From: an uncultured Campylobacterales bacterium
Lineage (GTDB): Bacteria; Campylobacterota; Campylobacteria; Campylobacterales; CACVAW01
Direction of reading: 5' to 3'
DNA length: 64,000 bases
Assembly: GCA_902727925.1 (NCBI GenBank)
Contig: CACVAW010000061.1
Span: 713-64,712 of the forward strand
The position numbers were made by a program, and so were the translations under genes. Below, piece by piece: positions 30,583 to 64,000 of this stretch. The first letter of the stretch is position 1. Each line of letters starts with the position of its first letter. The notes under the pieces were generated by a model that saw nothing but the letters and a program-made list of their open reading frames with translations, had not been told where the DNA came from and ran no database searches.

Positions 30583-30869
30583 ATGAAAAAATATAATTTT
30601 AGATAAGTCATTTCAAAACAATTACTTAGAAGTGGAACATCAATAGGTGCAAATATAAATGAAGCACAAGCAAGACAATCTAAAAAAGACTTTATATCTA
30701 AAATGAGTATAGCAAGTAAAGAGGCACGAGAAAGTAAGTACTAGAACTTCTCATAAGAACAGAGTACTTATCTCTTAAAGATAAGTATACAAGTAATTTA
30801 CTCAGCCAAGTAAATGAGACTATAAAAATAATAACAAGTATTGTGAAAACTTCAAAGGAAAATATCTAA
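30583..30869 (+). pseudogene. decayed four-helix-bundle (23S rRNA IVS / Avd-like) protein gene
   Basis: Reads MKKYNFR*VISKQLLRSGTSIGANINEAQARQSKKDFISKMSIASKEARESKY*. After a frameshift it continues (W)LELLIRTEYL...SIVKTSKENI*. The N-terminal helix is deleted. It is a paralogue of the intact gene at 52648-52998. Confidence 0.75.
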
Positions 30870-31909
30870 TGGAAAAATTCAAAATTCAAAATTCAAAATT
30901 CAAAACTATACTGGTCACTGGCTGTGCAGGTTTTATAGGGAGTAATTTTGTACCATATTTTTTGGATAAATATGAAGAATATAATTTAGTTAATTTAGAT
31001 TTACTAACTTATGCAGGAGATTTAAAAAACCTAAAAGAGTGTGAGAATAATTCTAGGTATAAGTTTATAAAAGGTGATATTTGTAATAGGGATTTAGTTG
31101 AATTTATATTTAATGAGTATGATATACAAGGTGTAATTCATTTTGCAGCTGAATCTCATGTTGATAACTCTATTAAAAATCCAGGAGTATTTATTGAGAC
31201 AAATGTGAATGGTACATTCACACTAATAGATGTTGCATATAAATACTGGATGAATAAACCATTTGAATACAAAGATAATTACAAAAACTCAAGATTTCAT
31301 CATATCTCAACAGATGAGGTATATGGTACACTCAATGAGGTAGATTTATTCACAGAGAGTACTCCATATGCACCAAACTCACCATACTCAGCATCTAAAG
31401 CATCAAGTGATATGATAGTTAGATCTTATCAAGAAACTTATGGAATGAATACAGTCATTACAAACTGTTCAAATAACTATGGACCAAAACAACACGACGA
31501 AAAATTGATTCCTACAATTATTAGAAAAGCATTATCAGGTGAATCAATACCTATTTATGGTGATGGTAAGAATATCAGAGATTGGTTATATGTACTTGAT
31601 CACTGCAAGGGAATCGACCTTGTATATCACAATGGAGCTGAGGGAAATGTATATAATATCGGAGGAAGAAATGAAAGAACAAATCTTCAAATAGTTGGTA
31701 GTATTTGTTCTATTCTAGATAAAAAAGTACCTCAAAAAGGATCATACAAAGAGCTAATAACTTTTGTAGATGATAGAGCAGGACACGATAGAAGATATGC
31801 AATAGATGCTACCAAACTAGAGAATGAACTGGGATGGAAAGCAGACGAAGATTTTGAAAGTGGCATAATAAAGACTATTGAATGGTATTTAGAGAAGTAT
31901 AATAAGTGA
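30869..31909 (+). CDS. rfbB: dTDP-glucose 4,6-dehydratase
   Basis: ILVTGCAGFIGSNF, HISTDEVYG and YSASKASSD. It carries an unusual 11-aa N-terminal extension encoded by a heptamer repeat. Confidence 0.93.
   Translation: MEKFKIQNSKFKTILVTGCAGFIGSNFVPYFLDKYEEYNLVNLDLLTYAGDLKNLKECENNSRYKFIKGDICNRDLVEFIFNEYDIQGVIHFAAESHVDNSIKNPGVFIETNVNGTFTLIDVAYKYWMNKPFEYKDNYKNSRFHHISTDEVYGTLNEVDLFTESTPYAPNSPYSASKASSDMIVRSYQETYGMNTVITNCSNNYGPKQHDEKLIPTIIRKALSGESIPIYGDGKNIRDWLYVLDHCKGIDLVYHNGAEGNVYNIGGRNERTNLQIVGSICSILDKKVPQKGSYKELITFVDDRAGHDRRYAIDATKLENELGWKADEDFESGIIKTIEWYLEKYNK
30874..30901 (+). repeat. 4 x AAAATTC heptanucleotide tandem repeat inside codons 2-11 of rfbB
   Basis: Read directly: units at 30874-80, 30881-87, 30888-94 and 30895-901, followed by a partial AAAAC. 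Confidence 0.9.
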
Positions 31910-31944: not shown

Positions 31945-32580
31945 ATGCAACCAACAAATCCAAAGATTTATCATATTGTTCATATTGATAAACTTCAGTC
32001 TATTGTAGATAATTGTGGGCTTTTGAGTCATAGTGAAGTGATAGGATTAGCTCTTGGTGGCACAACTATTGGAATGGATAGTATTAAACAAAGAAGACTT
32101 AATAAACTTACCTTTAGTACTTATCCTGACCTTTTTGTAGGGCATTGTGTTCCATTTTATTTTTGCCCTAGATCTGTGATGCTTTATACGATTGACATGA
32201 ATAATAAGGATATTAGATATCAAGGTGGTCAAGATAATATTATCCATCTTGAAGCTGATTTGATGCAGTCTATTCATTGGGCTAATACAAATAGTAAAAG
32301 ATGGGCATTTACATATTCAAATGCAGGTTCGTATTATTTTGAAGATACAAATGATTTGAAAAATTTAACAAATTTAGATTGGAATGCAATAAATGCTATA
32401 AATTGGAAGGGAATGAAAGAAAATAAACAAGCAGAATTTTTATGTGAAAATAACTTTTCTTGGAATTTGGTTGAGAGAATTGGAGTTTCAAACCAAACTG
32501 TTTATCAACAAGTTTTAAATATAATACAAAGTTCATATCACAAACCATTTGTTGAAATAAAAAATGATTGGTACTATTAG
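31945..32580 (+). CDS. darT: DarT (DUF4433) ssDNA ADP-ribosyltransferase toxin
   Basis: IYHIVHIDKLQSI, VPFYFCPRSVMLY and KQAEFL (catalytic Glu context) match hallmark DarT motifs; 211 aa. Confidence 0.88.
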   Translation: MQPTNPKIYHIVHIDKLQSIVDNCGLLSHSEVIGLALGGTTIGMDSIKQRRLNKLTFSTYPDLFVGHCVPFYFCPRSVMLYTIDMNNKDIRYQGGQDNIIHLEADLMQSIHWANTNSKRWAFTYSNAGSYYFEDTNDLKNLTNLDWNAINAINWKGMKENKQAEFLCENNFSWNLVERIGVSNQTVYQQVLNIIQSSYHKPFVEIKNDWYY

Positions 32581-32591
32581 TGGAGAGAGTA

Positions 32592-33635
32592 ATGATTAAG
32601 TATAAAAATGGTGATATATTAAAAGAGGATACAGAAGCTATTGTTAATACTGTAAATTGTGCTGGTGTGATGGGTAGAGGTCTTGCTTTACAATATAAAA
32701 ATAAATTTCCACAAAACTTCAAAGCCTATGCTTATGCCTGTAAAAATAAAGAAGTACAACCTGGAAAAATGTTTGTATATCAAACTGGACAATTAGTTAG
32801 TCCAAAATATATTATCAACTTTCCAACAAAAAGACACTGGAAAGCACATAGTAAAATAGAAGATATCGAAAATGGCTTAGATGATTTAATACAGGTTATA
32901 CAAAAATTAAGTATAAAATCAATAGCCATTCCACCACTTGGAAGTGGTCTTGGTGGATTAGATTGGAAAGTAGTCAAGCAAAAAATAAAGAAAAAACTAT
33001 CATTTGTTGATTGTGAAGTTTTAGTCTATGAACCACTTGAACAAAGAATCCAAAAAATTCAAACACAAGAATTACCTAAGATGACAGCAGGTCGTGCGGC
33101 ACTTTTGGAACTTATGGATAGGTATATTAAAGGCTTTATGGATCCATTTATTAGTTTACTTGAAGTACATAAGCTTATGTATTTTATGCAAGAAGCAGGA
33201 GAACCTTTGAAGCTTAAGTACCAAAAAGCTCATTTTGGACCATATGCAGATAATCTTAGACATGTTATGAATACTATAGAGGGTCACTTTGTTAGTGGCT
33301 ATGAAGATGGAGGAGACTCACCTACAAAACAACTTAAACTTGTAAAAGAAGCAGTTAAAGATGCAAAAGATTTCTTAGCAAACAAAAAAGAAACCCAACG
33401 AAATTTTGAAAAAGTGGCTGAACTTGTAGATGGGTTCGAAACACCATTTGGACTTGAACTTTTGGCTACAGTGCATTGGGTGGTTAAGTATGAAAATGCA
33501 AAAAGTATTGATGAAGTAGTTAAAAAAGTGTATAGTTGGAATGAAAGAAAAAAGCAGTTTACCGAAAGACAGATAAATATAGCATTTGATACTTTAGTAA
33601 AAAATGATTGGATAGATTTGGGTGTAGATTATTAA
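32592..33635 (+). CDS. darG: DarG macrodomain antitoxin (ADP-ribosyl-DNA glycohydrolase plus C-terminal DarT-binding domain)
   Basis: ATG at 32592 preceded by GGAGAGAG. Macrodomain motifs GDILKEDTEAIVNTVNCAGVMGRGLA and IAIPPLGSGLGGLDW, plus a ~190 aa C-terminal domain. Confidence 0.88.
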   Translation: MIKYKNGDILKEDTEAIVNTVNCAGVMGRGLALQYKNKFPQNFKAYAYACKNKEVQPGKMFVYQTGQLVSPKYIINFPTKRHWKAHSKIEDIENGLDDLIQVIQKLSIKSIAIPPLGSGLGGLDWKVVKQKIKKKLSFVDCEVLVYEPLEQRIQKIQTQELPKMTAGRAALLELMDRYIKGFMDPFISLLEVHKLMYFMQEAGEPLKLKYQKAHFGPYADNLRHVMNTIEGHFVSGYEDGGDSPTKQLKLVKEAVKDAKDFLANKKETQRNFEKVAELVDGFETPFGLELLATVHWVVKYENAKSIDEVVKKVYSWNERKKQFTERQINIAFDTLVKNDWIDLGVDY

Positions 33636-33685
33636 TGATAGCGTTTAATAAATCACTATGTGTACTTAGATGTGCTAAAATGACA

Positions 33686-33790
33686 AATGCTACCAAACTA
33701 GAAAATAAGCTTGGATGGAAAGCAAATGAAAACTTTGATACTGGTATAATAAAGACTATTGAATGGTATTTAGGGAAGTATAATAAGTGA
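33686..33790 (+). pseudogene. detached copy of the rfbB 3' end (copy 2)
   Basis: Aligns to 31805-31909 over 105 nt with 13 mismatches by my count, only 1 of them in the last 45 nt. It encodes ...ATKLENKLGWKANENFDTGIIKTIEWYLGKYNK* with no upstream dehydratase body. Confidence 0.9.
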
Positions 33791-35139
33791 CAAAAAAAGA
33801 TATATCAAACCTTATTTCAAAAAGTGAAGGTCAATATATTGAGTTTAAAACCTCTTTTCAAAAAGAAGTTATAGTCTCAGTAGTAGCTTTCTCAAATACA
33901 AAAGGTGGAAATATACTTATAGGAATAGATGATAATGAAAATATCCTAGGTGTTAATATATCTAAAGAAACCATCCAAAACTATATTAATGAAATCAAGC
34001 AAAACACACAGCCTTCTATTATAGTTGATATAGATGAATTTGAAATACAATCTAAGAAAATATTGAATATAACTATCAAAGAGTATCCCCTAAAACCAGT
34101 TGCTTATAAAAATAGATATTACAAAAGAGTTAAAAACTCAAATCACCTTATGAGCTTGAGCGAAATTTCAAATGAACATATAAAAACTTTTAATACTTCT
34201 TGGGATTATCATATAGATACTAGGCATGATTTTGAAGATATATCACTTAAAAATGTAGAAAAATTCATTCAAAAAATTGAATCAAATCAAAATAAAACTT
34301 TTAAAGATGATGCATATACTATTTTGAAAAAATATGAACTCATAAAAGAAAATAAACTTACATTTGGAGCTTATCTACTTTTTACTTCAAACGAATCAGC
34401 ACTTACTTCATTTCAAATAGGAAGGTTCAAAACACAAACTCATATCATAGACAACATAGATATAAATACTAATCTATTTGATCAAATAGATTTAGTAATG
34501 AATGGGATAAAAAAACATTTGATGACAGAATTTGTCATCACAGGTGAACCACAAAGGAAAATCAAGTACGATTATCCACCTCAAGCTATAAGAGAGATAG
34601 TTGTAAATATGATAGTTCATAGAGATTATAGAGATAGTGGAAATTCGATCATTAAAGTTTACGATGATAGAATAGAGTTTTTTAATCCTGGAAAACTATA
34701 TGATGATATTACTATACAGAAGCTAAACTCAGGAAATTATTCTTCGAGAACAAGAAATAGAGCAATAGCTAGAGCATTTAAAGAAGCTGGTATTATAGAA
34801 AGATATGGTTCAGGTATATCAAGAATAAAAGATGAATGTAGTAGACACGGTCTTAAGCAACCAAAAATAGAAGAGTTTGTACATGGTTTTAGAGTTATAC
34901 TATTTAAGAACACAAATGTCGGAGTAAATGTCGGAGTAAATGTCGGAGTAAATGTCGGAGTAAACCAAGTATATGATTTTATCAAACAAAACCAACCCAT
35001 AAGAACAAATACAATAGCCGAAAATTTTCCTACCGTGACTCAACGAACTATAGAAAGATATATAAAAAAACTCAAAGATGAAAAGAAAATAGATTTTGTA
35101 GGTAGTTCAAAAATTGGGGGATATATAATTATATGGTGA
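33787..35139 (+). CDS. Schlafen/AlbA_2 domain - HATPase_c_4 - wHTH protein (COG2865-type), copy 1
   Basis: The GTG start overlaps the remnant rfbB stop. N-terminal ESQ/EGQYIEFK...AFSNTKGGNILIGIDD (AlbA_2), IREIVVNMIVHRDY...RNRAIARAF...ERYGSGI (HATPase_c_4) and a C-terminal HTH tail. Confidence 0.8.
   Translation: MTKKDISNLISKSEGQYIEFKTSFQKEVIVSVVAFSNTKGGNILIGIDDNENILGVNISKETIQNYINEIKQNTQPSIIVDIDEFEIQSKKILNITIKEYPLKPVAYKNRYYKRVKNSNHLMSLSEISNEHIKTFNTSWDYHIDTRHDFEDISLKNVEKFIQKIESNQNKTFKDDAYTILKKYELIKENKLTFGAYLLFTSNESALTSFQIGRFKTQTHIIDNIDINTNLFDQIDLVMNGIKKHLMTEFVITGEPQRKIKYDYPPQAIREIVVNMIVHRDYRDSGNSIIKVYDDRIEFFNPGKLYDDITIQKLNSGNYSSRTRNRAIARAFKEAGIIERYGSGISRIKDECSRHGLKQPKIEEFVHGFRVILFKNTNVGVNVGVNVGVNVGVNQVYDFIKQNQPIRTNTIAENFPTVTQRTIERYIKKLKDEKKIDFVGSSKIGGYIIIW
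34915..34962 (+). repeat. 4 x 12-bp perfect tandem repeat AATGTCGGAGTA (NVGV x4), in frame
   Basis: Read directly. It lies in the linker between the HATPase-like domain and the wHTH of the 33787 gene. Confidence 0.95.
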
Positions 35140-35147
35140 ATTTTGTA

Positions 35148-35240
35148 AAACTAGAAAATAAGCTTGGCTGGAAAGCAGATAAAGATTTTTTAGGTATTGT
35201 TAAAATAATTAATTGGAATTTAGGGAAATATAATGGGTAA
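35148..35240 (+). pseudogene. detached, more decayed copy of the rfbB 3' end (copy 3)
   Basis: Encodes [30 protein letters not shown]. It has a one-codon deletion and is about four fifths identical to copy 2. Its end overlaps the fdtA ATG. Confidence 0.8.
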
Positions 35241-35655
35241 TTATAAAGTAATTAACTTTAAAACTTTAGGTGATGATAGAGGTTCTTTAATAGCTATAGA
35301 GCAAGGATATAATGCTCCTTTTGATATTAGTAGAGTATATTATATATTTGACACTAAAAAAGATGTTGAAAGAGGTTTTCATGCGCATATCAATCTCAAA
35401 CAAATTGCTATATCTGTTAAAGGTAGTTGTACTTTTGTCCTAGATAATGGAGAGAAAAGAGAAGAGGTAAAAATTGACAATCCAAATCAAGGTCTTTTTA
35501 TAGAAGGTCTTATTTGGAGAGAGATGAAGGACTTTAGTGAAGATTGTGTTCTAGTTGTGCTTGCAAGTGAACATTACGATGAGAATGATTATATAAGAGA
35601 TTATGAAAAGTTTTTAGAAGAGGTAAAAAATGATTCATCACTTAGCAGACGTTAG
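35233..35655 (+). CDS. fdtA: dTDP-4-keto-6-deoxyglucose 3,4-ketoisomerase (FdtA/QdtA, WxcM-like cupin)
   Basis: [22 protein letters not shown] and RGFHAH; 140 aa. The galacto versus gluco product cannot be told from sequence. Confidence 0.85.
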
Positions 35656-36141: not shown

Positions 36142-37248
36142 ATGATTCCATTTTTAGATTTAAAAGGCATAAATGCACAATATAGAAATGAGCTTATCGA
36201 AGCATGTACAAAAGTAATAGATAGTGGTTGGTATATTCAAGGAAATGAATGTAAGGCTTTTGAAAAAGAGTTTGCTTCATTTTGTGGTACAAGGTATGCA
36301 ATAGGTGTTGCTAATGGTCTAGATGCTTTATCTTTAATACTTAGAGCTTATAAAGAACTAGATATTATAAAAGATGGAGACGAAGTGATTGTCCCTTCAA
36401 ATACTTATATCGCTTCTATATTGGCAATTTCTGAAAATAATTTGGTTCCTGTTTTGGTTGAGCCCAATATTGATACTTATTTAATAGACCCAGAAAGAAT
36501 AGAAGAAAAAATAACATCAAAAACTAAAGCTATTATGAGTGTTCATCTCTATGGACAAACATGTGAAATGGATAAAATAAATAAGATAGCCAAAAAATAT
36601 AATCTAAAAGTTATAGAAGATTCAGCTCAATCACATGGTGCATACTTTAAAGATAAAAAATGTGGGAATTTAGGTGATGCTAGTGGATTTAGTTTTTATC
36701 CAGGTAAAAATCTCGGAGCATTAGGTGATGGTGGCATAGTAACAACAAATAATGAAGAATTAGCTGATACAATCAAAGCGTTAGGTAATTATGGGAGTCA
36801 TACAAAATATGAAAATATTTATCAAGGGACAAATAGTCGGTTAGATGAAATGCAAGCAGCAATGTTACGAGTAAAACTTAGGTTTCTTGATAGTGAGATA
36901 AAAGTAAGAAGAGAAACTGCAGATTATTATATTGAAAATATTAAGAATGAAAATATTACTTTGCCTACCTTAAGAACAAACAATAATCATGTTTGGCATC
37001 TCTTTACAATACGAACAAATAAAAGAACGGAGTTACAAAAATATCTTTTAGATAATGGTATTCAAACTTTGATACATTATCCATTACCTCCACATAAACA
37101 AGAAGCTTATAGAAAATGGAATAATGAAAGTTTTGTGATAAGTGAAACAATACATGACGAGATTTTGAGCTTGCCTATTAGTGGTATTCAAAAAATAGAA
37201 GATACAAAAGAAATAACAAGATTAATTAATAAATGGAGAGAAAAATGA
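36142..37248 (+). CDS. DegT/DnrJ/EryC1-family PLP sugar aminotransferase (FdtB/QdtB-like)
   Basis: [17 protein letters not shown] and [15 protein letters not shown]; 368 aa. Confidence 0.88.
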
Positions 37249-38537
37249 ATAAAACAGTATATATAGGAATGAGCGCAGATTTAGTACATCCTGGACATAT
37301 GAATATACTTCAAGTAGGGGCTGAACTCGGAGAAGTTGTTGTAGGACTTTTGACGGATAAGGCAATTGCAAGTTATAAAAGACTTCCATATATGACTTAT
37401 GAACAAAGAAAGTTAGTAATCGAAAATATAAAAGGAGTTAAAGAAGTAATTCCTCAAGATACCCTTGACTATAGACCTAACTTGGAATTGATTAAACCTG
37501 ACATTGTGGTTCATGGAGATGATTGGAAAGAAGGTGTTCAAAGTAAAACTAGACAACAAGTACTCGATACTTTAAGTCAGTGGGGTGGTGAGCTAGTTGA
37601 ACCAAATTATACATCTGGTATTTCATCTACACAATTAAATAATTCATTAAAAGAACTAGGTACTACTCCAGATATTAGAAGAAGTAGACTAAGAAGATTA
37701 ATAGACTCAAAAGAAGTAGTTAGAATTTTAGAATCTCATAATGCTCTAAGTGGTCTTATTGTAGAAAATATAAAATCTGATGATGGTGTAGAGTATGATG
37801 GAATGTGGTCAAGTTCTTTAACTGATTCTACTTCAAAAGGTAAGCCAGATATTGAAGCTGTTGATGTTAGTACAAGAATATCTACAATAAATGAAATATT
37901 TGAAGTTACAACAAAGCCGATGATTTATGACGCAGATACAGGTGGAATTGCAGAACATTTTGCATTTACAGTTAGGACTTTAGAACGAACAGGAATTAGT
38001 GCTGTAATAATAGAAGATAAGACAGGTTTAAAAAAGAATTCTTTATTTGGTAATGATGTAGCTCAAACACAAGATACTATAGAAAATTTTTGTGAAAAAA
38101 TTAAAGCTGGTAAAAAAGCACAAATAACAGATGACTTTATGATTATCTCTAGAATTGAAAGTTTAATTTTAGAAAAAGGTATGGATGACGCAGTATTAAG
38201 AGCAAAAGAATATATAAAAGCTGGTACAGATGGTGTTATGATACATTCAAGACTTAAAGAACCAAATGAAATTATAGAATTTTGTCAAATAATAAGAAAA
38301 TATGATGAGAATATTCCAATTATTGTTGTTCCTACAAGTTATAATCAAATTACAGCAAAAGAGTTAAGTAAAGTTGGTATAAATGTAGTTATTTATGCAA
38401 ATCATATGTTAAGAGCAGCTTACCCTGGAATGAAAAATGTAGCTAAATCTATACTTCAAAATGACAGAAGTTTAGAAGCAGAAGAAAATCTTTTATCAAT
38501 TAAAGAAATACTAGACTTGATACCAGGAACTAAATAA
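37245..38537 (+). CDS. pepM: bifunctional HxGH cytidylyltransferase-like domain / phosphoenolpyruvate phosphomutase
   Basis: ATG at 37245 overlaps the upstream stop, with RBS GGAGAG. N-terminal [15 protein letters not shown]...HGDDW. PEP mutase/ICL-fold motifs DADTGG and [12 protein letters not shown]. Confidence 0.85.
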
Positions 38538-39610
38538 TGGCGTTAGACACAAAGAAGTTTATAGAAAGTTTAATAGAAGAAAAATACACTCATTTGTGTG
38601 TTGTCCCTTGTAGTTTTGTAAAATATGTAATTAATGAAGCTATTAATAATCCAAATATAGAGTATGTCCCATGTGCTAGTGAAGCTGTAGCTTGTTCTGT
38701 TGCAGCTGGCCTTAAAATGTCGGGTAGTAGTCCGATGGTTATTGTTCAATCTTCAGGTGTGACAAATATGGGAAGTTGTATTACAAGTCTACTTAAGCCT
38801 TATGATGTAACTTTTCCAATTCTTACAAGTTGGAGAACTTATAAAAGTGGCGATAGTGAGATACAACATGAACATTTAGCTACAGAACTTCCTAAACTGA
38901 TTAAGGCTTATGGGTATGAATATACTATCTTAGATAATGAAAACTTAGAAAATACAATATCTCAAATAAATACTTGTGATGAGACAAATACAGTAGCAAT
39001 TATAAAAAAAGATAGTTTTACAAAAATAGAATTAGATGATAAACATAAATTAAATTTATTGGAATACACTCCACGAAGTGAATTTTTAACAAAATTAAAT
39101 GAAGACTTTAAAAGTACAGATGTTATTTTTATAGGTACAACTGGAAATACTGCTAGAGAAATGTATAGTTTCATGCCAGATACTAATAACTTCTATATGG
39201 CGGGTAATATGGGAGGAGCTTTAAGTCTAGGATTAGGCTTTGCAATGTCAGGGAAAAAAGTAATTGTTTGTGGTGGAGACGCTGAATTTGTTATGCATAT
39301 GGGCGGGCTTACAACAGCAGGAAGATACAGAGATAAAATAGATTTGACTTATATATTATTTGATAATGAATCTAATAAGTCTACTGGTGGACAAAATACT
39401 TATCAACAACATATTGACTATGTAAATATAGCTAAAAGTTGTAACTTTGATTTATTTGATAATGGTAAAGTAAACAAATTAGATAAATTTGAAGAGTTTA
39501 CTCAAACGCTAAAAAACAAATCTGGACTTAATTTTGTGTGTGTTAAGTGCGGTGTTGATGATGAAACTCCTAGACCACCTTTAGAAGTGGTTAAAGTAAA
39601 TAGAGTTTAG
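38537..39610 (+). CDS. ppd: phosphonopyruvate decarboxylase (ThDP-dependent)
   Basis: ThDP-binding motif GGDAEFVMHMGG...FDNESNKSTGGQ. It sits immediately after pepM. Confidence 0.85.
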   Translation: MALDTKKFIESLIEEKYTHLCVVPCSFVKYVINEAINNPNIEYVPCASEAVACSVAAGLKMSGSSPMVIVQSSGVTNMGSCITSLLKPYDVTFPILTSWRTYKSGDSEIQHEHLATELPKLIKAYGYEYTILDNENLENTISQINTCDETNTVAIIKKDSFTKIELDDKHKLNLLEYTPRSEFLTKLNEDFKSTDVIFIGTTGNTAREMYSFMPDTNNFYMAGNMGGALSLGLGFAMSGKKVIVCGGDAEFVMHMGGLTTAGRYRDKIDLTYILFDNESNKSTGGQNTYQQHIDYVNIAKSCNFDLFDNGKVNKLDKFEEFTQTLKNKSGLNFVCVKCGVDDETPRPPLEVVKVNRV

Positions 39611-40684
39611 ATGGAAAAAGATTTTACTTATTATATGCCAACAAAGATTGTATATGGACAGGATAAACTTGATGAATTAGACAAATATATAAATGGTAGA
39701 AAAGCTCTACTTATTACTTCTACAGGCTTTATCAAAAGAGGTTTGGTGGATAGGATTAAGAGTCTAACATCTAGTATTGTATATGTAATAAGTAATATAA
39801 AAACTCATCCAGAGTTTATAGACTTAGAAACTATATATAATAGTGTAAAAGATATTGACTTTGAAATTATATTAGCAGTTGGTGGGGGTAGTGTACTTGA
39901 CGCCTCAAAATTTATTTCAGTTCAGAATGATTTGAGAGAGTATCAATTTGTTGAAGATATTGTAAAAGGTAAAATACAAAAAAAAGACTATAACTTAATA
40001 CCTATTATTTCTATACCTACAACAGCTGGAACTGGAAGTGAAATAACTCCTTGGGCTACAATATGGGATATGATAGAAAAAAAGAAATATTCTCTTCATT
40101 TACCTGAATTATTTAGTGAAACTGCGATTTATGATCCATTATTAACACTAAGTGTACCTAAAGAAATAACTATTCAAACAGGCCTAGATACTCTTTCTCA
40201 TGCCTTAGAGTCTATTTGGAACAAAAATGCAAATGAAATTACTATAAATTATGCCGTGAAATCTGCAAGATTAATTATTCAAAACTTAGTTAAGTTATCA
40301 ACTAATCTAGATAATATAGAATATAGAGATAATATAATGAAAGCTTGTATGTACGCGGGACTTGCCTTTTCTAATACTCAAACAGCCATAGCTCATGGTA
40401 TGAGTTACTATATAACAGCGAATAAAGGGATTCCTCATGGAATTGCATGTAGTTTTACACTCCCTTTATTAATAGATAGTGTTATAGGAAAATATCATTT
40501 TATAGATGACGCTTTAACAAATATTTTTGGAGAGTTGTCTTCTAACAAATTAAGAAGCATATTAAAAGAATTAAGTATTTCTACTGAATTTAAAGATTAT
40601 GGAATAAGTGATTTTGAACTTAAAAACCTTAACTTATCACTTCAAAATAACCAGCGAGCTGGAAATAGTTTGGTTGTGATTTAA
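39611..40684 (+). CDS. iron-containing (group III) alcohol dehydrogenase, candidate phosphonoacetaldehyde reductase
   Basis: GGGSVLDASKF, TTAGTGSE and the metal-ligand His regions LSHALES and IAHGMSY. The position after ppd suggests the substrate; that is an inference. Confidence 0.75.
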   Translation: MEKDFTYYMPTKIVYGQDKLDELDKYINGRKALLITSTGFIKRGLVDRIKSLTSSIVYVISNIKTHPEFIDLETIYNSVKDIDFEIILAVGGGSVLDASKFISVQNDLREYQFVEDIVKGKIQKKDYNLIPIISIPTTAGTGSEITPWATIWDMIEKKKYSLHLPELFSETAIYDPLLTLSVPKEITIQTGLDTLSHALESIWNKNANEITINYAVKSARLIIQNLVKLSTNLDNIEYRDNIMKACMYAGLAFSNTQTAIAHGMSYYITANKGIPHGIACSFTLPLLIDSVIGKYHFIDDALTNIFGELSSNKLRSILKELSISTEFKDYGISDFELKNLNLSLQNNQRAGNSLVVI

Positions 40685-45763: not shown

Positions 45764-46697
45764 TATAAATAAAATTTCAATAATAATACCAACATATAAC
45801 GCACAAAGATATTTACCAAAGTTATTAGATAGTATTAAAACTCAATCTATAAAAAATTATGAACTACTAATAATAGATTCAAGTTCATCTGACAAAACAG
45901 TTGAAATTGCTAAAGAATATACTGAAAATGTGATAGTAATACCTCAAAGTGAATTTGATCATGGTGGTACGAGAGCTAAAGCTGCACAAATAGCTTCAGG
46001 GGAGATTCTTGTATATCTTACTCAAGATGCACTTCCTTGTGATGATTATACAATAGAGAGTATCATAAAAGTATTTGAAGATGAAAAAATAGGTGCTGCT
46101 TATGGTAGGCAGTTAAGCTATGATGATACTAATCTTTTTGGTAAGCATCTACGAGAGTTTAATTATAGTAAAAATTCATATATAAGAGATAAAAGTGACA
46201 TTAAACAATTTGGTTTGAAAACAGCTTTTTTATCTGATAGTTTTGCTGCTTATCGTAAGAGTGCTTTACAAGATATAGGATTGTTTAAAAGTGATTTGAT
46301 ACTAGGTGAAGATACTTATGCAGGTGCAAAAATGATATTAGATGGATATAGTCTTGCTTATGTTAGTGAAGCACAAGTATATCATTCCCATAGTTATACC
46401 GTGTGGCAAGAATTTAAAAGATATTTTGATATAGGTGTATTTCATAAATATGAAGACTGGATACTGGAGCGTTTTGGTAAGGCTGAGGGTGAAGGGAAGA
46501 GATATATCAAATCTGAAGTTAAGTATCTACTTAAGAATAAATCTTGGTATCTATTGCCTGAATGGTTTGTACGCAATGGTATGAAATATTTGGGGTATAA
46601 ATTAGGTCAAAAATATGAAAAACTACCAAAATGGATGATAAAAAGAATGAGTATGCATCATAGATGGTGGGACAAAAAAATAGACTCTAAAAAATAA
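45747..46697 (+). CDS. GT2-family glycosyltransferase (rhamnosyltransferase-like)
   Basis: ISIIIPTYNAQRYL, LLIIDSSSSDKT, FDHGGTR and TQDA. Confidence 0.8.
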   Translation: MYIKNDINKISIIIPTYNAQRYLPKLLDSIKTQSIKNYELLIIDSSSSDKTVEIAKEYTENVIVIPQSEFDHGGTRAKAAQIASGEILVYLTQDALPCDDYTIESIIKVFEDEKIGAAYGRQLSYDDTNLFGKHLREFNYSKNSYIRDKSDIKQFGLKTAFLSDSFAAYRKSALQDIGLFKSDLILGEDTYAGAKMILDGYSLAYVSEAQVYHSHSYTVWQEFKRYFDIGVFHKYEDWILERFGKAEGEGKRYIKSEVKYLLKNKSWYLLPEWFVRNGMKYLGYKLGQKYEKLPKWMIKRMSMHHRWWDKKIDSKK

Positions 46698-48055
46698 TGC
46701 AAAAACTAAACCTCAAAGAATCACAAACTATAGAATTCAAAGAAGTATGGAAAGACGAGTACTTAAAAACTATATGTGCATTTGCTAATAGTGATGGTGG
46801 GGTGATATATATTGGTATTGATGATAGCTCAAACATAGTAGGTTTAAAAGATACAAAAAATATCATAGAAGTTTTGCCAAATAAGGTAAATAATAGACTT
46901 GGTCTTATAGTGGATATTAATTTAAGATATAAAAGTAGCTTAGAGTATATCGAGATGATAATCCAAAAAACATATGCACCAATATCATATAATGGAAAGT
47001 TTTATAAAAGAAGTGGTAGCAATACAATTGAATTAAATGGAGTTAATCTTACAAACTTTTTACTTAAGAAGTATGGCAAGACTTGGGATGATGTTTCTGA
47101 AGAAAAATTTGGGCTTGATGAGATAGATTTGAGTACTATTGAGAAGTTTAAAAAGCTCTCAAGAGATAGGATACCAGATATACAAAGTCAAACGAATTTA
47201 GAAGAACTATTAAGAAAACTTAATCTATATGATGGTGAATATCTTAAAAGAGCTGCGATTTTGTTATTTGGTAAGAATCCACAAATGTATTATGTGCAGT
47301 CTCATTCTAAGATAGGTAGATTTTTAAGTGAGACTGATATTCAAAGTAGTGATATCATAGAGGGTAACCTCATAGATCAAGTAGATAAGATTATGGATGT
47401 GTTAAGGCTGAAGTATCTTAAAGCTTATATCTCGTATGAGGGAATGCATAGAAGAGAAAAGCTTGAATATCCATATGAAGCTCTTCGTGAGGCTGTAATA
47501 AATGCACTCATACATAGAGACTATACAAATACTTCAAATCTTCAAATAAAAGTATATGATGACAAGCTTGTCATGTATAATGGAGCTACACTAAGTAGTG
47601 AAGTACCTATAGATAGGTTTGATAAGCCTCATCAATCAAAGCCATTTAATCCTACTATGGCAAATGTATTTTATAAGTGTGGGTTTATAGAGAACTGGGG
47701 AAGAGGTACACTTAATATCATAGATGATTGTGTAGAGTACGGACTACCTAAACCTTTGTTTGAATATGAGTGGACTGCTGTAAGGACTACATTTTTTAAA
47801 ACCACCCAAGAAACCACCCAAGAAACCACCCAAGAAACCACCCAAGAAACCACCCAAGAAACCACAAAGAGCAAAATAGTAAAACTACTAAAAGAGAATC
47901 CCAAATACACAAAACAAGATATGATGAACATACTAAATAAAGGTGACTCAACAATAAAAGAGCATCTTGCAAACCTCAAAAGAGAAGGTATAATAACAAG
48001 AGTAGGAAGCACAAAATCAGGATATTGGAAAATACTAAAAGGAGATAATGAATGA
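46697..48055 (+). CDS. Schlafen/AlbA_2 domain - HATPase_c_4 - wHTH protein (COG2865-type), copy 2
   Basis: ESQTIEFKEVW...AFANSDGGVIYIGIDD, LREAVINALIHRDY, NWGRGT and a C-terminal wHTH. Its start overlaps the GT2 stop (TAATG) and its stop overlaps the manC start. Confidence 0.8.
   Translation: MQKLNLKESQTIEFKEVWKDEYLKTICAFANSDGGVIYIGIDDSSNIVGLKDTKNIIEVLPNKVNNRLGLIVDINLRYKSSLEYIEMIIQKTYAPISYNGKFYKRSGSNTIELNGVNLTNFLLKKYGKTWDDVSEEKFGLDEIDLSTIEKFKKLSRDRIPDIQSQTNLEELLRKLNLYDGEYLKRAAILLFGKNPQMYYVQSHSKIGRFLSETDIQSSDIIEGNLIDQVDKIMDVLRLKYLKAYISYEGMHRREKLEYPYEALREAVINALIHRDYTNTSNLQIKVYDDKLVMYNGATLSSEVPIDRFDKPHQSKPFNPTMANVFYKCGFIENWGRGTLNIIDDCVEYGLPKPLFEYEWTAVRTTFFKTTQETTQETTQETTQETTQETTKSKIVKLLKENPKYTKQDMMNILNKGDSTIKEHLANLKREGIITRVGSTKSGYWKILKGDNE
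47801..47860 (+). repeat. 5 x 12-bp perfect tandem repeat ACCACCCAAGAA (TTQE x5), in frame
   Basis: Read directly. It is followed by a partial unit ACCACA and occupies the same linker position as the NVGV repeat in copy 1. Confidence 0.95.
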
Positions 48056-61948: not shown

Positions 61949-63112
61949 ATGCAAGATATATTATATAGATCTAATCCATGGTGGGAAGAAAACTATTCGT
62001 TTGAGGGTATTACTAGAAATATTTATTTAAACGAAATGAAACTTGTATTTGAGAATCCTGATATTGTTTTTTTGACAGGGCTTAGAAGGGTAGGTAAAAC
62101 TACACTTATGAAAAGCTTTATTTCTCATTTGATAAATCATAAAAAAATAGAACCACAACAGATATTTTATATTAGTCTTGATTTGTTAGCTTTGTCAGAT
62201 TTGAGTATTCAAGATATTCTAAAAGAGTATAGAACATTACTCAAGTTGAGTAATAGTACTAAAACATATTTGTTTTTTGATGAAGTCACTGCAAAAAAGG
62301 ATTATCATCAAGAGTTAAAAAATCTCTATGACTTAGAAAGTGTAAAAATATATGCTTCAAGTTCTAGTGCCTCATTACTCAAAGACAAAAATGCATATCT
62401 CACAGGGAGACAAAGAGTACTAGAAATAATGCCTTTAAGTTTTGAAGAATATTTGAACTTCAAAAAAATCAAAATCAAAAAATCAGAATCATATTTACTT
62501 AAAAGCTACTTTGAGGATTATATGCAAAGTGGAGGTATGCCAGAATTTGTAAAAACAAAAGATATAAGCTATCTACAAAATCTAATAGACAATATAATAT
62601 ACAAAGACATAATCGCCCATAACAATATAAAAAATGAACAGACTATAAGAGACTTTTATAAGCTTTTAATGGAACGAAGTGGCAAACAACTAAGTCTAAA
62701 TAAAATAGCAAATATATTAGATATAGGAGCAGATAGTGCTAGGAGGTATCTTAGCTATTTTGAAGAGACTTATCTCATATATACAGTAAAAAAATATGGC
62801 AAACTTAATGAAAGAATCAAAAACCCCAAAAAAATATACTCAGCAGATATAGGACTCAAAAATGTAGTAACTGGATTTAGAGATTTAGGTGCTGTATTTG
62901 AGAATATGGTCTATCTCAAAATCAAATCTCAAAACCCAAGGTATGTATATGAAAATGGTATAGAACTAGACTTCATGACCGAAAACAAAACTCTAATAGA
63001 AGTTAAATATAACTCCAAATTAAACAAAAATCAAGAAAAATTATACGAAAAAATCGAAGCAAACAAAAAAATAAGAATCCAAAATATAGAAGATTTTTTG
63101 AAGTTCCTATAA
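61949..63112 (+). CDS. AAA ATPase with C-terminal DUF4143-like domain
   Basis: Walker A GLRRVGKTT and Walker B YLFFDEV. The C-terminal half (ENGIELDF...EVKY) resembles the restriction-endonuclease-like DUF4143. Confidence 0.75.
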   Translation: MQDILYRSNPWWEENYSFEGITRNIYLNEMKLVFENPDIVFLTGLRRVGKTTLMKSFISHLINHKKIEPQQIFYISLDLLALSDLSIQDILKEYRTLLKLSNSTKTYLFFDEVTAKKDYHQELKNLYDLESVKIYASSSSASLLKDKNAYLTGRQRVLEIMPLSFEEYLNFKKIKIKKSESYLLKSYFEDYMQSGGMPEFVKTKDISYLQNLIDNIIYKDIIAHNNIKNEQTIRDFYKLLMERSGKQLSLNKIANILDIGADSARRYLSYFEETYLIYTVKKYGKLNERIKNPKKIYSADIGLKNVVTGFRDLGAVFENMVYLKIKSQNPRYVYENGIELDFMTENKTLIEVKYNSKLNKNQEKLYEKIEANKKIRIQNIEDFLKFL

Positions 63113-63317
63113 ACGACAGTATAAGTCGCTAATTTTTGATAGAATGTTGAGATTGAAAAGTATCATAAGAGAAGGAAATTTATGAAAAATGTAGAGATAT
63201 TAAAAGATATCTTATAAACGACAGTATAAGTCGCTAAAGTTTGATAGAATGTTGCAAATGAAAAGTATGATAAGAGAAGGAAGTTTATGGAAAATGTAGA
63301 GATATTAAAAGATATCT
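63108..63317 (+). repeat. 2 x 105-bp tandem direct repeat duplicating the 5' UTR, RBS and first 11 codons of the downstream gene
   Basis: Copy 1 at 63108-63212 versus copy 2 at 63213-63317, 8 mismatches by my count. Copy 1 encodes only MKNVEILKDIL*. Confidence 0.9.
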
Positions 63318-64000
63318 TAATAAAGTTAAAAAGTTATGATGAGTATTTAAAAGAAAAAAAATCAGAAGGATATAACAATTATAACCCTTTAACAGTACTT
63401 AGAAAAAGCTATGATGAAGTTGGGTTGCATTCTGCTTTTATATATTCTTTAATCAACCCAAAAGGTAATCATTACCGAGATGATACATTTACTAAATTAT
63501 TTTTAAAAATAGTTTTAAAATTAGAAAATTATGGGAAAATCTATGATGTGAGAAGAGAGTATATTATCGAAAATCAAAGAAGAATAGATTTTTATATAAA
63601 TACTGAAAAGTACAAAATAGCTATAGAGATGAAAATATATGCAGGTGATCAAAAAAATCAAATATCTGACTACTATAAAGCTGTAAGAAAAATAGCAAGT
63701 GAAGATAGCAGTAAAGAAAAAGTATACTATCTATCTCTGTATGAGAGAGATGCTACAAAATCAAGTGCTAAAGATCGTACATATACAAAAATATCTTTTA
63801 AAGATCATATTTTAAATTGGTTAAAAGAGTGTATTAAAGCTATTAAAAATGAAGACAAAAATGAATTATCAAACATAATACAATCTATAGAGTTCTATAA
63901 AGAAATAATACAAATACTTACAAAGCAAAAGCAAAAGGAAAAGAAAATAATGGATATAGTCGATTATGTAAAAGAGAAAAAAGTAAATTTAGAAGATATA
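63287..64000 (+). CDS. PD-(D/E)XK nuclease-family protein (partial, runs off the window)
   Basis: Not in the ORF track because it has no stop. It is open for 238 codons from the ATG at 63287 with RBS AGAGAAGGAAG. Motifs: NPLTVLRK...EVGLHSAFIYSLINPKG, RIDFYI...IAIEMKIYAGDQ (D...ExK). Confidence 0.7.
   Translation, partial: MENVEILKDILIKLKSYDEYLKEKKSEGYNNYNPLTVLRKSYDEVGLHSAFIYSLINPKGNHYRDDTFTKLFLKIVLKLENYGKIYDVRREYIIENQRRIDFYINTEKYKIAIEMKIYAGDQKNQISDYYKAVRKIASEDSSKEKVYYLSLYERDATKSSAKDRTYTKISFKDHILNWLKECIKAIKNEDKNELSNIIQSIEFYKEIIQILTKQKQKEKKIMDIVDYVKEKKVNLEDI

Follow-up and report, generated by a model that had tools for sequence, protein, structure and literature searches.

A Schlafen–ATPase–winged-helix gene with a repeat tether at the rmlB–fdtA junction of a campylobacterial glycan operon

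The gene and its repeat linker

We analysed a stretch of 64,000 nucleotides from an uncultured Campylobacterales bacterium (contig CACVAW010000061.1 of assembly GCA_902727925.1; called the window in the following) and in it an open reading frame (ORF) of the + strand, 33787..35139, which lies in an O-antigen-type operon between rfbB (rmlB) and fdtA. It starts with GTG and encodes a protein of 450 amino acids (aa), in which a Schlafen ribonuclease (RNase) domain, a GHKL ATPase, a repeat tether and a C-terminal winged helix-turn-helix (wHTH) follow one another. This architecture had already been read from the sequence alone as AlbA_2/Schlafen, HATPase_c_4 and wHTH, and Pfam, an AlphaFold2 model and Foldseek all bear it out; the motifs HRDY, RNRAIARAF and ERYGSG named in that sequence-only reading are indeed present in the protein. 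The Pfam domain SLFN_AlbA_2 (PF04326; aa 14-122, 33826..34152, + strand) is matched with 86.9 bits against a gathering cut-off of 25.3 (E 1.9e-24) and is followed in the same polypeptide by HATPase_c_4 (PF13749; aa 289-372, 34651..34902, + strand; E 1.9e-24), a match that covers the C-terminal portion of the GHKL/Bergerat ATPase fold. The wHTH (aa 392-450, 34960..35136, + strand) is matched by HTH_11 at aa 393-436 with an E of 1.5e-5 and belongs to class A of the three C-terminal classes described below (RTIERYIKKLK...KIDFVGSSKIGGY). The PADLOC models for SLFN-pAgo and Aga align to aa 25-376, and a scan of the protein against NCBIfam gave no match.

The nuclease motif Ex4(E/D)xK is present as E14-GQYI-E19-F-K21 at the start of the SLFN_AlbA_2 domain (33826-33849, + strand), and a SAFAN-like box, VAFSN (aa 33-37), opens the glycine-rich core VAFSNTKGG (aa 33-41). 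In the ATPase the N-box residues E270 and N274 (34594-34608, + strand) lie directly upstream of the HATPase_c_4 match and correspond to E314 and N318 of the Runella zeae SLFN-pAgo protein RzAgo, which are its Mg/ATP residues. Across 103 homologues E19, K21, V33, F35, N37, G40, G41, E270, N274 and Y340 are invariant, and E14 as well as G341-G343 of the YGSG loop are kept in at least 90% of them. The AlphaFold2 model, built from these 103 homologues, has a mean pLDDT of 89 and a pTM of 0.73; its sole disordered segment, residues 377-389, is the repeat, and aa 392-448 are predicted to form the three helices and the beta hairpin of a winged HTH. Using Foldseek against the PDB, the predicted model was matched over its full length by the uncharacterised DIP2311 from Corynebacterium diphtheriae (3LMM, E 1.8e-22), which was also the sole match of a PDB search with the protein sequence (E 2.3e-5). 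DIP2311 is the only solved structure matching the full length, but as a longer (~580 aa), only 14-16% identical and uncharacterised protein from structural genomics it is uninformative on function. The predicted N-domain was matched by the nuclease domains of SLFN11 (7zep, E 5e-5), SLFN13 (5yd0), SLFN5 (7cux), SLFN14 and SLFN12, all from human and other mammalian structures, and the predicted middle domain by histidine-kinase CA and pyruvate dehydrogenase kinase folds, which points to a GHKL/Bergerat ATPase.

The combination of a Schlafen with a GHKL domain has been named "Schlatpase", and most of the Schlatpase proteins are small and HTH-terminated (Kuzmenko et al., bioRxiv 10.64898/2026.05.29.728809). 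Schlatpase-HTH was reported in 2026 as the commonest prokaryotic Schlafen architecture, comprising tens of thousands of proteins, and among 5,930 prokaryotic Schlafens 'HisKinase-HTH' fusions account for 19.2% (Perez Taboada et al., Nat Microbiol 2026, PMC13056530). Judged by its reading frame, 33787..35139 apparently encodes an intact stand-alone Schlatpase-HTH protein; it is a member of a known and abundant class, and the architecture itself is not new.

The ATPase is connected to the wHTH by a perfect 12-bp tandem array (AAATGTCGGAGT; 34914..34964, + strand), for which Tandem Repeats Finder gave a period of 12, 4.2 copies, 100% matches and a score of 102. It encodes (NVGV)4, as had been stated before, and forms the tether that is predicted to be disordered. 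At a minimum score of 60 only two period-12 arrays exist in the 64-kb window, and as the second one sits in the linker of a paralogue the array is not there by chance. This second Schlatpase-HTH gene (46697..48055, + strand; 452 aa, 29% identical) belongs to the same glycan operon, where a GT2 gene and manC flank it and the stops and starts overlap. Its array (47799-47865), a perfect 12-bp unit in 5.6 copies, encodes (TTQE)5 and leads to an ArsR-like wHTH of class B; a flanking duplication was not found around this gene (z=2.2). Since every change in the copy number of the 12-bp unit at 34914-34964 stays in frame, it results in length variation and not in on/off phase variation. The array looks like a slippage-prone in-frame ruler that would change the length of the tether in 4-residue steps. 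The 12-bp unit was also considered as an operator or iteron and rejected, as the window holds 8 matches with up to two mismatches against 3.3 expected, four of them inside the array itself (34912-34959). In three biofilm-metagenome runs the Logan contigs with window sequence break exactly at the array (34914-34955), leaving the repeat alleles unreadable.

The perfect repeat is not peculiar to this one gene: when the strongest tandem repeat of each family gene is taken, it is a period-12 (or 24) array of the corresponding linker in 79 of 84 genes, with 2.2-9.5 copies (usually ~4) and a unit-to-unit identity of 89-100%. The repeat units differ between lineages (VNVG, VNEG, VNGG, VSGG, LNEP, TTQE, TAQE, VTKD, VTDK, VGKD, VPKD, TVGK and others), which argues for a continual turnover of the arrays and not for shared descent of one array, and period-4 linkers (TRVK, EMSEK) occur even in plasmid homologues of 28% identity. 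The suspected length-variable hinge was confirmed by near-identical homologue alleles differing by two or three repeat units. Two of the loci compared below (L028 and L032) are 98.5% identical over 2.7 kb, and in the 141-nt aligned stretch around their arrays the sole difference is a 24-nt, two-unit indel; the 91% identical homologues P0025 and P0031 differ by a three-unit indel in the array. Thus, what defines simple-sequence contingency, a coding tandem repeat with copy-number polymorphism among close relatives, is found in the homologues, and the repeat linker is a near-universal, length-polymorphic hallmark of the family. A similar ruler is known from the HsdS subunits of EcoR124I and EcoR124II, in which a 12-bp repeat encoding the tetrapeptide TAEL is present two and three times, respectively. 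There, too, an in-frame repeat of 12 bp makes a 4-residue spacer between modules, and slippage re-sets their distance. The HsdS spacer, however, is helical, lies between two DNA-reading domains and changes the spacing of the recognition site, whereas the linker described here is predicted to be disordered and joins an enzyme body to a wHTH.

Insertion between rmlB and fdtA

The Schlafen gene is flanked on both sides by copies of the end of rfbB. The rfbB gene itself (30869-31909) ends with the genuine 3' tail (T1, 31806..31909). A duplicated tail (T2, 33687..33790) is 88% identical to T1 and contains an open mini-ORF from the ATG at 33680 to the TGA at 33790, and a third, more decayed tail (T3, 35136..35247; tail similarity of 71-88% at ~35148-35247, mini-ORF 35136-35240) leads to fdtA (35233..35655), which encodes a WxcM-like isomerase, is the usual neighbour of rmlB and marks the far side of the insertion site. 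All these features are on the + strand, and the similarity of the flanking tail copies reaches z=21-45 against shuffled controls, with z=21-27 for the copies on either side of the Schlafen gene. T1 and T2 enclose a DarT-DarG toxin-antitoxin cassette (31945..33635, + strand), which directly precedes the Schlafen gene, and both DarT (31945-32580) and DarG (32568-33635) clear their NCBIfam equivalog cut-offs; the Schlafen gene sits between T2 and T3. These flanks confirm the position that had been assigned to it, after DarTG and inside a cassette bounded by rfbB tails. Both duplicated tails look functional. T2 carries a Shine-Dalgarno (SD)-like AGGGAAG 8 nt 5' of the Schlafen GTG, which overlaps the stop of the T2 mini-ORF (GTGA). 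In T3 the GTG start of the mini-ORF overlaps the Schlafen stop (GTGA), its TAA end overlaps the fdtA start (ATGGGTAA), and an SD-like AGGGAAA is found 4 nt 5' of the fdtA ATG.

For comparison we compiled 80 metagenomic loci encoding close FdtA relatives, 65 of them with at least 200 nt upstream of fdtA. In 32 of these 65 rmlB ends at a distance of -8 to +4 nt from where fdtA begins, and neither a Schlafen nor a DarTG gene is present in any of the 80. One locus (L110) shows the order rmlA-rmlC-rmlD-rmlB-fdtA, that is, the order of the window without the inserts, and another (L104) agrees with it from rmlC onward. Because rmlB usually runs directly into fdtA in the related loci and both inserts are missing from all of them, the 3.3 kb that separate the two genes in the window represent two insertions, with DarTG being independent of the Schlafen cassette. 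The rmlB–fdtA contacts and the missing gene in the 80 loci also agree with the earlier claim of an accessory gene rather than a glycan enzyme, and from this gene order the Schlafen gene is an accessory cassette in an O-antigen-type operon, outside the sugar pathway. Regarding the molecular identity of the gene and its cassette nature together, we are highly confident.

In two others of the 65 loci, L099 (1819-1917) and L100 (545-643), fdtA is preceded only by a remnant of the rmlB tail (aa 311-343) and no full rmlB, similar to T3, and the rmlB tail seems to travel with fdtA in these two loci and in the window. The inserts at the rmlB–fdtA junction of L130 and L163 were ruled out as accessory cassettes as they are ordinary glycan genes. 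Short contigs from an aquaculture-metagenome run (X4) match 33734-35189, which is most of the Schlafen gene including the junction between T2 and the gene, with a few differences per hundred bases, and leave DarTG almost uncovered; some relative may thus carry the Schlafen cassette without DarTG. An integron-type gene cassette was rejected since host genes (rfbB here, DegT or UDP-glucose dehydrogenase elsewhere) have contributed their duplicated 3' ends as boundaries in place of attC-like inverted repeats, and no integrase was seen among those of the window ORFs that were annotated.

No terminator-like sites were found on the + strand between rfbB and fdtA, which suggests a co-transcription of the cassette with the operon, and promoter-like sites are at the background level of the AT-rich window DNA. 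From these features we infer that the duplicated rmlB tail would preserve the translation-initiation region for the next gene, so that a promoterless cassette could be accommodated without polar effects and would be both co-transcribed and translationally coupled with the operon. Another repeat is located at the opposite end of rfbB/rmlB, where a perfect heptanucleotide, AAAATTC in 4.6 copies (30874-30905), just 3' of the ATG encodes an N-terminal extension (MEKFKIQNSKFK) missing from the aligned homologues. As slippage of a 7-bp unit shifts the frame, this repeat could be a phase-variable translational switch of rmlB, which through coupling might also affect the downstream cassettes.

Relatives in glycan operons and exchange of the wHTH

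A protein search resulted in more than 1,100 homologues, the best of them 70% identical, with matches of ~50% identity from distant phyla. We took 80 loci from contigs of one genome per species, covering Campylobacterota, Gammaproteobacteria, Bacteroidota, Planctomycetota, Desulfobacterota and one archaeal metagenome-assembled genome; together with two earlier loci, and after dropping those without a callable full-length gene, 79 loci were analysed. All six contexts with a precomputed Pfam annotation turned out to be glycan loci, namely for flagellin glycosylation of the legionaminic/pseudaminic type with Maf genes, for capsule or O-antigen, and of the pgl type with PglB. Among the 119 immediate neighbour genes of ~75 loci the DegT aminotransferases (13), UDP-glucose dehydrogenases (7) and Polysacc_synt_2, RmlD and epimerases (6 each) are the top Pfam families, and glycosyltransferases, Bac_transf, Wzx and Schlatpase paralogues are common as well. 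At least 55 of the 79 loci have one or more glycan genes within four genes and at least 40 have two or more; both counts are lower bounds, as the BLAST behind them, with 51 glycan enzymes as reference, was kept insensitive on purpose, and the yardstick for the enrichment is how rare such genes are in general and not a matched random-gene control. Accordingly, one locus (L014) came out at zero although its neighbours show matches to Wzm/Wzt-type ABC-transporter families (ABC2_membrane, ABC_tran). The neighbours are mostly co-oriented with the gene, both upstream (63/71) and downstream (64/71). From these contexts the subfamily resides in glycan operons, which is different from prokaryotic Schlafens at large, 69.6% of which are found near known defence genes (PMC13056530).

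An enrichment near defence genes had been proposed as a check, and the usual neighbours are glycan genes and not defence genes: within the 119 neighbours, again without a matched random-gene control, no enrichment of the gene beside known defence systems was found. Among the matches listed for the 25 commonest families, PADLOC recognised CARF, PDC candidates that lack validation and, by its pAgo/Aga models, the paralogues. The idea of a conserved partner or antitoxin gene was also rejected, since the 384 neighbours clustered into nothing but glycan families, paralogues and small accessory genes of scattered occurrence, and a conserved DarTG–Schlafen partnership could be ruled out because DarT and DarG are missing from 89 other loci. 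The adjacency to DarTG, previously taken as a functional hint, therefore says little on function. What recurs besides glycan genes in these loci are Uma2, 23S_rRNA_IVP, HEPN/MNT-like pairs, RhuM and PaaX-like HTH genes. Genes for Uma2-family putative nucleases (PADLOC PDC-S03) are present in a flagellin-glycosylation locus of L001 (9454-9999 and 19297-19836) and L088 (9861-10400), one of them directly upstream of the Schlafen homologue. Homologues at a greater distance (25-29% identical) do occupy typical mobile or defence settings, among them streptococcal phage satellites and plasmids, and one is found inside a type I restriction-modification operon of an Aliarcobacter cryaerophilus plasmid.

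Signs of insertion are not restricted to the window. Direct repeats (z at least 8) flank the gene in 22 of 76 loci, and several of them arose by duplication of the 3' end of the glycan gene upstream, for instance that for DegT (L050) or UDP-glucose dehydrogenase (L059, L003). In L079 and L085 an identity of 94.6% is confined to the ORF.

While the catalytic residues are constant, the wHTH is the least conserved part of the protein and is exchanged between unrelated classes. The identity of the body (aa 10-372) and that of the wHTH (aa 394-446) are almost uncorrelated (r=0.12 over 5,253 protein pairs), and where the bodies are at least 75% identical (577 pairs), the wHTH identity is 30% or less in 187 pairs. 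The homologues can be separated into at least three C-terminal classes: class A (RTIERWIKQLK...KIEF.G..KTGGY), class B (...AIKQHL..LK..LKRVGS.K.GYWEV) and class C with the tail ...KPLIEK.LL.LTIPDKP.SPKQKY, the latter carrying the Pfam family PF21247, which is present in four homologues and which we take to be a Fic-like C-terminal domain. In the sequences that we inspected by eye, the repeat type tends to track the C-terminal class. L001 and L088 are 100% identical for 10.2 kb, and this identity begins inside the repeat linker, at aa 386 of the L001 gene and aa 374 of the L088 gene, with no detectable similarity upstream. We read the array linker as the joint where recombination replaces one wHTH module by another.

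Orphan cassettes consisting of the last GHKL strand, the repeat and a wHTH adjoin full genes in L028, L032, L043, L067 and L072, and extra C-terminal-like regions were detected in 24 of the 79 loci. In L043 (700-4950) at least five orphan cassettes surround one full-length Schlafen gene just upstream of glycan genes, with repeat units including LNGR, VNEG, LNGE and SSEK; this array could be the result of serial displacement or a reservoir of silent cassettes. A search with a profile of the class-A module gave hundreds of ORFs of 53-104 aa, some of them on long contigs and many possibly contig-end fragments; among the matches listed almost all are such short ORFs, either orphans or contig-end fragments. 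A comparable organisation is known from the polymorphic toxins CdiA-CT and Rhs-CT, which share the conserved body, the exchangeable C-terminal modules and the orphan cassettes downstream (at least five in L043). They differ in that their variable module is the toxin and comes with immunity genes, whereas in Schlatpase-HTH a small DNA-binding-type domain varies in a cytoplasmic protein and immunity genes are missing. A constant enzyme body with a diversifying small domain and displaced cassettes resembles the specificity-module shuffling of conflict systems, such as HsdS and the orphan CdiA/Rhs C-terminal cassettes, and it is not what one expects for a housekeeping regulator.

Some other features of the window should be mentioned. 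In the 290-nt gap between rmlD and rmlB lies a 23S_rRNA_IVP (four-helix-bundle) gene that has decayed through stops and a frameshift (30583-30866) and the conceptual read-through of which scores 75 bits against PF05635; it is a further accessory cassette remnant in the rml operon, and an intact 23S_rRNA_IVP gene is found in L003 two genes upstream of the Schlafen homologue. Downstream of fdtABC (37233-40684) a phosphoenolpyruvate mutase–cytidylyltransferase fusion and a thiamine pyrophosphate-dependent decarboxylase for phosphonate biosynthesis are encoded, along with a putative Fe-alcohol-dehydrogenase-like gene (39611-40684) assigned by reading alone, which suggests a phosphonate decoration of the 2-aminoethylphosphonate type on the glycan. 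A 105-bp tandem repeat of 2.1 copies with 91% identity (63108-63324) follows just after an ORF ending at 63112. Rfam and tRNA scans of the window found nothing.

Proposed function and alternative explanations

Prokaryotic Schlafen domains have been described as phage-activated anti-phage tRNases, for which tRNA cleavage needs the Ex4(E/D)xK motif (PMC13056530). In RzAgo, ATP binding leads to tetramerisation, and the paired Schlafen domains rebuild the two-lobed mammalian nuclease and form an active cleft (bioRxiv 10.64898/2026.05.29.728809). RzAgo has SLFN_AlbA_2 and GHKL in the same order as the protein described here and shares with it the Ex4(D/E)xK motif, the SAFAN-like box and the E...N pair of the GHKL domain. 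It differs in its Argonaute core and guide-RNA sensor, in place of which the protein from the window has a wHTH of ~60 aa on a repeat tether; moreover, the tetramer data are those of RzAgo, while the stand-alone form is known here from sequence. With RorSlfn5 and EcoSlfn7 the protein has in common the Schlafen nuclease domain, the catalytic motif and the logic of a constant effector with a variable sensor, but their partner domains are Ig-like or DUF262 instead of GHKL-HTH. The earlier statement that the family has no established function thus holds only in part: Schlafen relatives are anti-phage tRNases and a Schlatpase oligomerises on ATP, whereas the stand-alone HTH form is still without a demonstrated function.

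Based on these homologies we propose that the gene encodes an ATP-dependent, trigger-activated RNase, probably of the abortive-infection type, which is carried on an inserted cassette; we give this combined reading a probability of roughly 0.55. In such a mechanism, ATP-driven oligomerisation would pair the Schlafen domains into an active RNA-binding cleft, as suggested by homology to RzAgo and RorSlfn5, and a trigger sensed via the tethered wHTH would license the cleavage of tRNA or other RNA. Translation would be shut off as a consequence, in the manner of abortive infection or growth arrest, with the wHTH or the tether acting as the sensing or specificity element and the cassette riding on the transcription of the operon without polar damage. 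Whether phage is the target is a separate matter, and phage defence specifically, for which we argue by analogy to the related Schlafens, falls short of even odds in our view.

Several points weigh against this proposal. The immediate neighbours are overwhelmingly glycan enzymes and validated defence systems are rare among them, so that the guilt by association used for defence islands does not apply, and DarTG is adjacent in the window only (0/89 other loci). The wHTH barely clears its Pfam gathering score (25.3 vs 25 bits). No stand-alone Schlatpase-HTH protein has so far been assigned an activity, a trigger or a phenotype. HisKinase fusions were among the constructs that have been tried, and the two protecting E. 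coli were fusions with DUF262 and Ig-like domains (PMC13056530).

An extended form of the RNase proposal is a cassette-switching conflict system, in which a constant RNase-ATPase body would receive interchangeable wHTH modules via the array joint, which would also determine the length of the tether, from a reservoir of nearby orphan wHTH cassettes, with one large clade residing as promoterless cassettes in surface-glycan operons. We regard this as a tentative and on balance improbable idea.

The alternatives partly overlap with the RNase proposal. The best of them, although rather improbable as a full explanation, is that the gene is a selfish or locus-stabilising passenger, which spreads with exchanged glycan loci or penalises their loss similar to the toxin-antitoxin cassettes of superintegrons and has no dedicated anti-phage role. 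It would fit that the gene shares its glycan loci with DarTG (in the window), HEPN/MNT-like pairs, Uma2, RhuM and 23S_rRNA_IVP, that it can be transferred horizontally on its own (L079/L085), that flanking duplications are common and serial displacement leaves C-terminal remnants, and that a decayed 23S_rRNA_IVP gene in the same operon shows cassettes coming and going. A classic addiction mechanism is not evident, however, as no antitoxin-like partner is conserved next to the gene; strong purifying selection on two catalytic centres across phyla combined with a diversifying putative sensor is the pattern of a host-beneficial conflict system, and related Schlafen proteins defend against phage. 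A passenger would also be compatible with a trigger-activated RNase and does not exclude it.

Less probable still is a regulator of the host polysaccharide operon, in which the wHTH binds an operator and the ATPase and Schlafen domains serve as ligand or nucleotide sensor and not as nuclease. A dedicated transcription factor of polysaccharide loci was named in the sequence-only reading as the result that would overturn it, and the glycan neighbours superficially approach this: the association with glycan loci is strong across phyla (DegT, UDP-glucose dehydrogenase, Rml proteins, epimerases, glycosyltransferases and Wzx being the top neighbours, all six annotated contexts and at least 55 of 79 loci with a glycan gene within four genes), the gene is co-oriented and tightly packed with its neighbours, it ends with an HTH, and "regulator" is a frequent label of such proteins in public annotation. 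Nevertheless, a dedicated glycan-locus transcription factor is disfavoured, because the position in the operon and the flanking genes vary between locus types as different as flagellin glycosylation, pgl, capsule and O-antigen, because insertion scars flank a gene that is missing from all 80 related rmlB–fdtA loci, and because the module that should read DNA is the least conserved one and swapped between classes while nuclease and ATPase residues are conserved. Furthermore, the rest of the window shows no enrichment of the 12-bp unit of the kind expected for an operator, and two divergent paralogues are present in one operon. A decaying or non-functional insertion with the repeat as a neutral slippage product is highly improbable, as the GTG in place of an ATG start and the decay of the neighbouring T3 remnant and 23S_rRNA_IVP pseudogene are opposed by a full-length intact frame with every conserved family residue, a confident fold prediction, an in-frame array at the canonical position as in 79 of 84 relatives, an SD-like sequence before the start and preserved stop/start overlaps.

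Glycan-operon residence, the 12-bp array and wHTH swapping had no description in our literature searches. In term searches of the two recent papers, the word "polysaccharide" was not found (PMC13056530; bioRxiv 10.64898/2026.05.29.728809), and no "linker" match in the latter deals with a repeat tether. Compared with the accessible literature, the repeat ruler and junction, the exchange of wHTH cassettes and the glycan-operon lifestyle are therefore new properties of this family. The glycan-operon clade could explain part of the 30% of prokaryotic Schlafens without a known defence neighbour (Perez Taboada et al.), and together with the DarTG, HEPN/MNT, Uma2 and RhuM cassettes it suggests that glycan loci are an unannotated kind of accessory or defence hotspot. 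Boundaries made of duplicated gene tails would offer a route by which foreign genes enter a translationally coupled operon without polar damage. The swappable and diversifying wHTH points to this domain as the specificity or sensor element, and as the near-universal tether varies in 4-residue steps between near-identical alleles, its copy number can be used as an experimental handle. If cassette switching were true, it would physically link the type of phage receptor to an abortive-infection effector, which might be called receptor-linked immunity.

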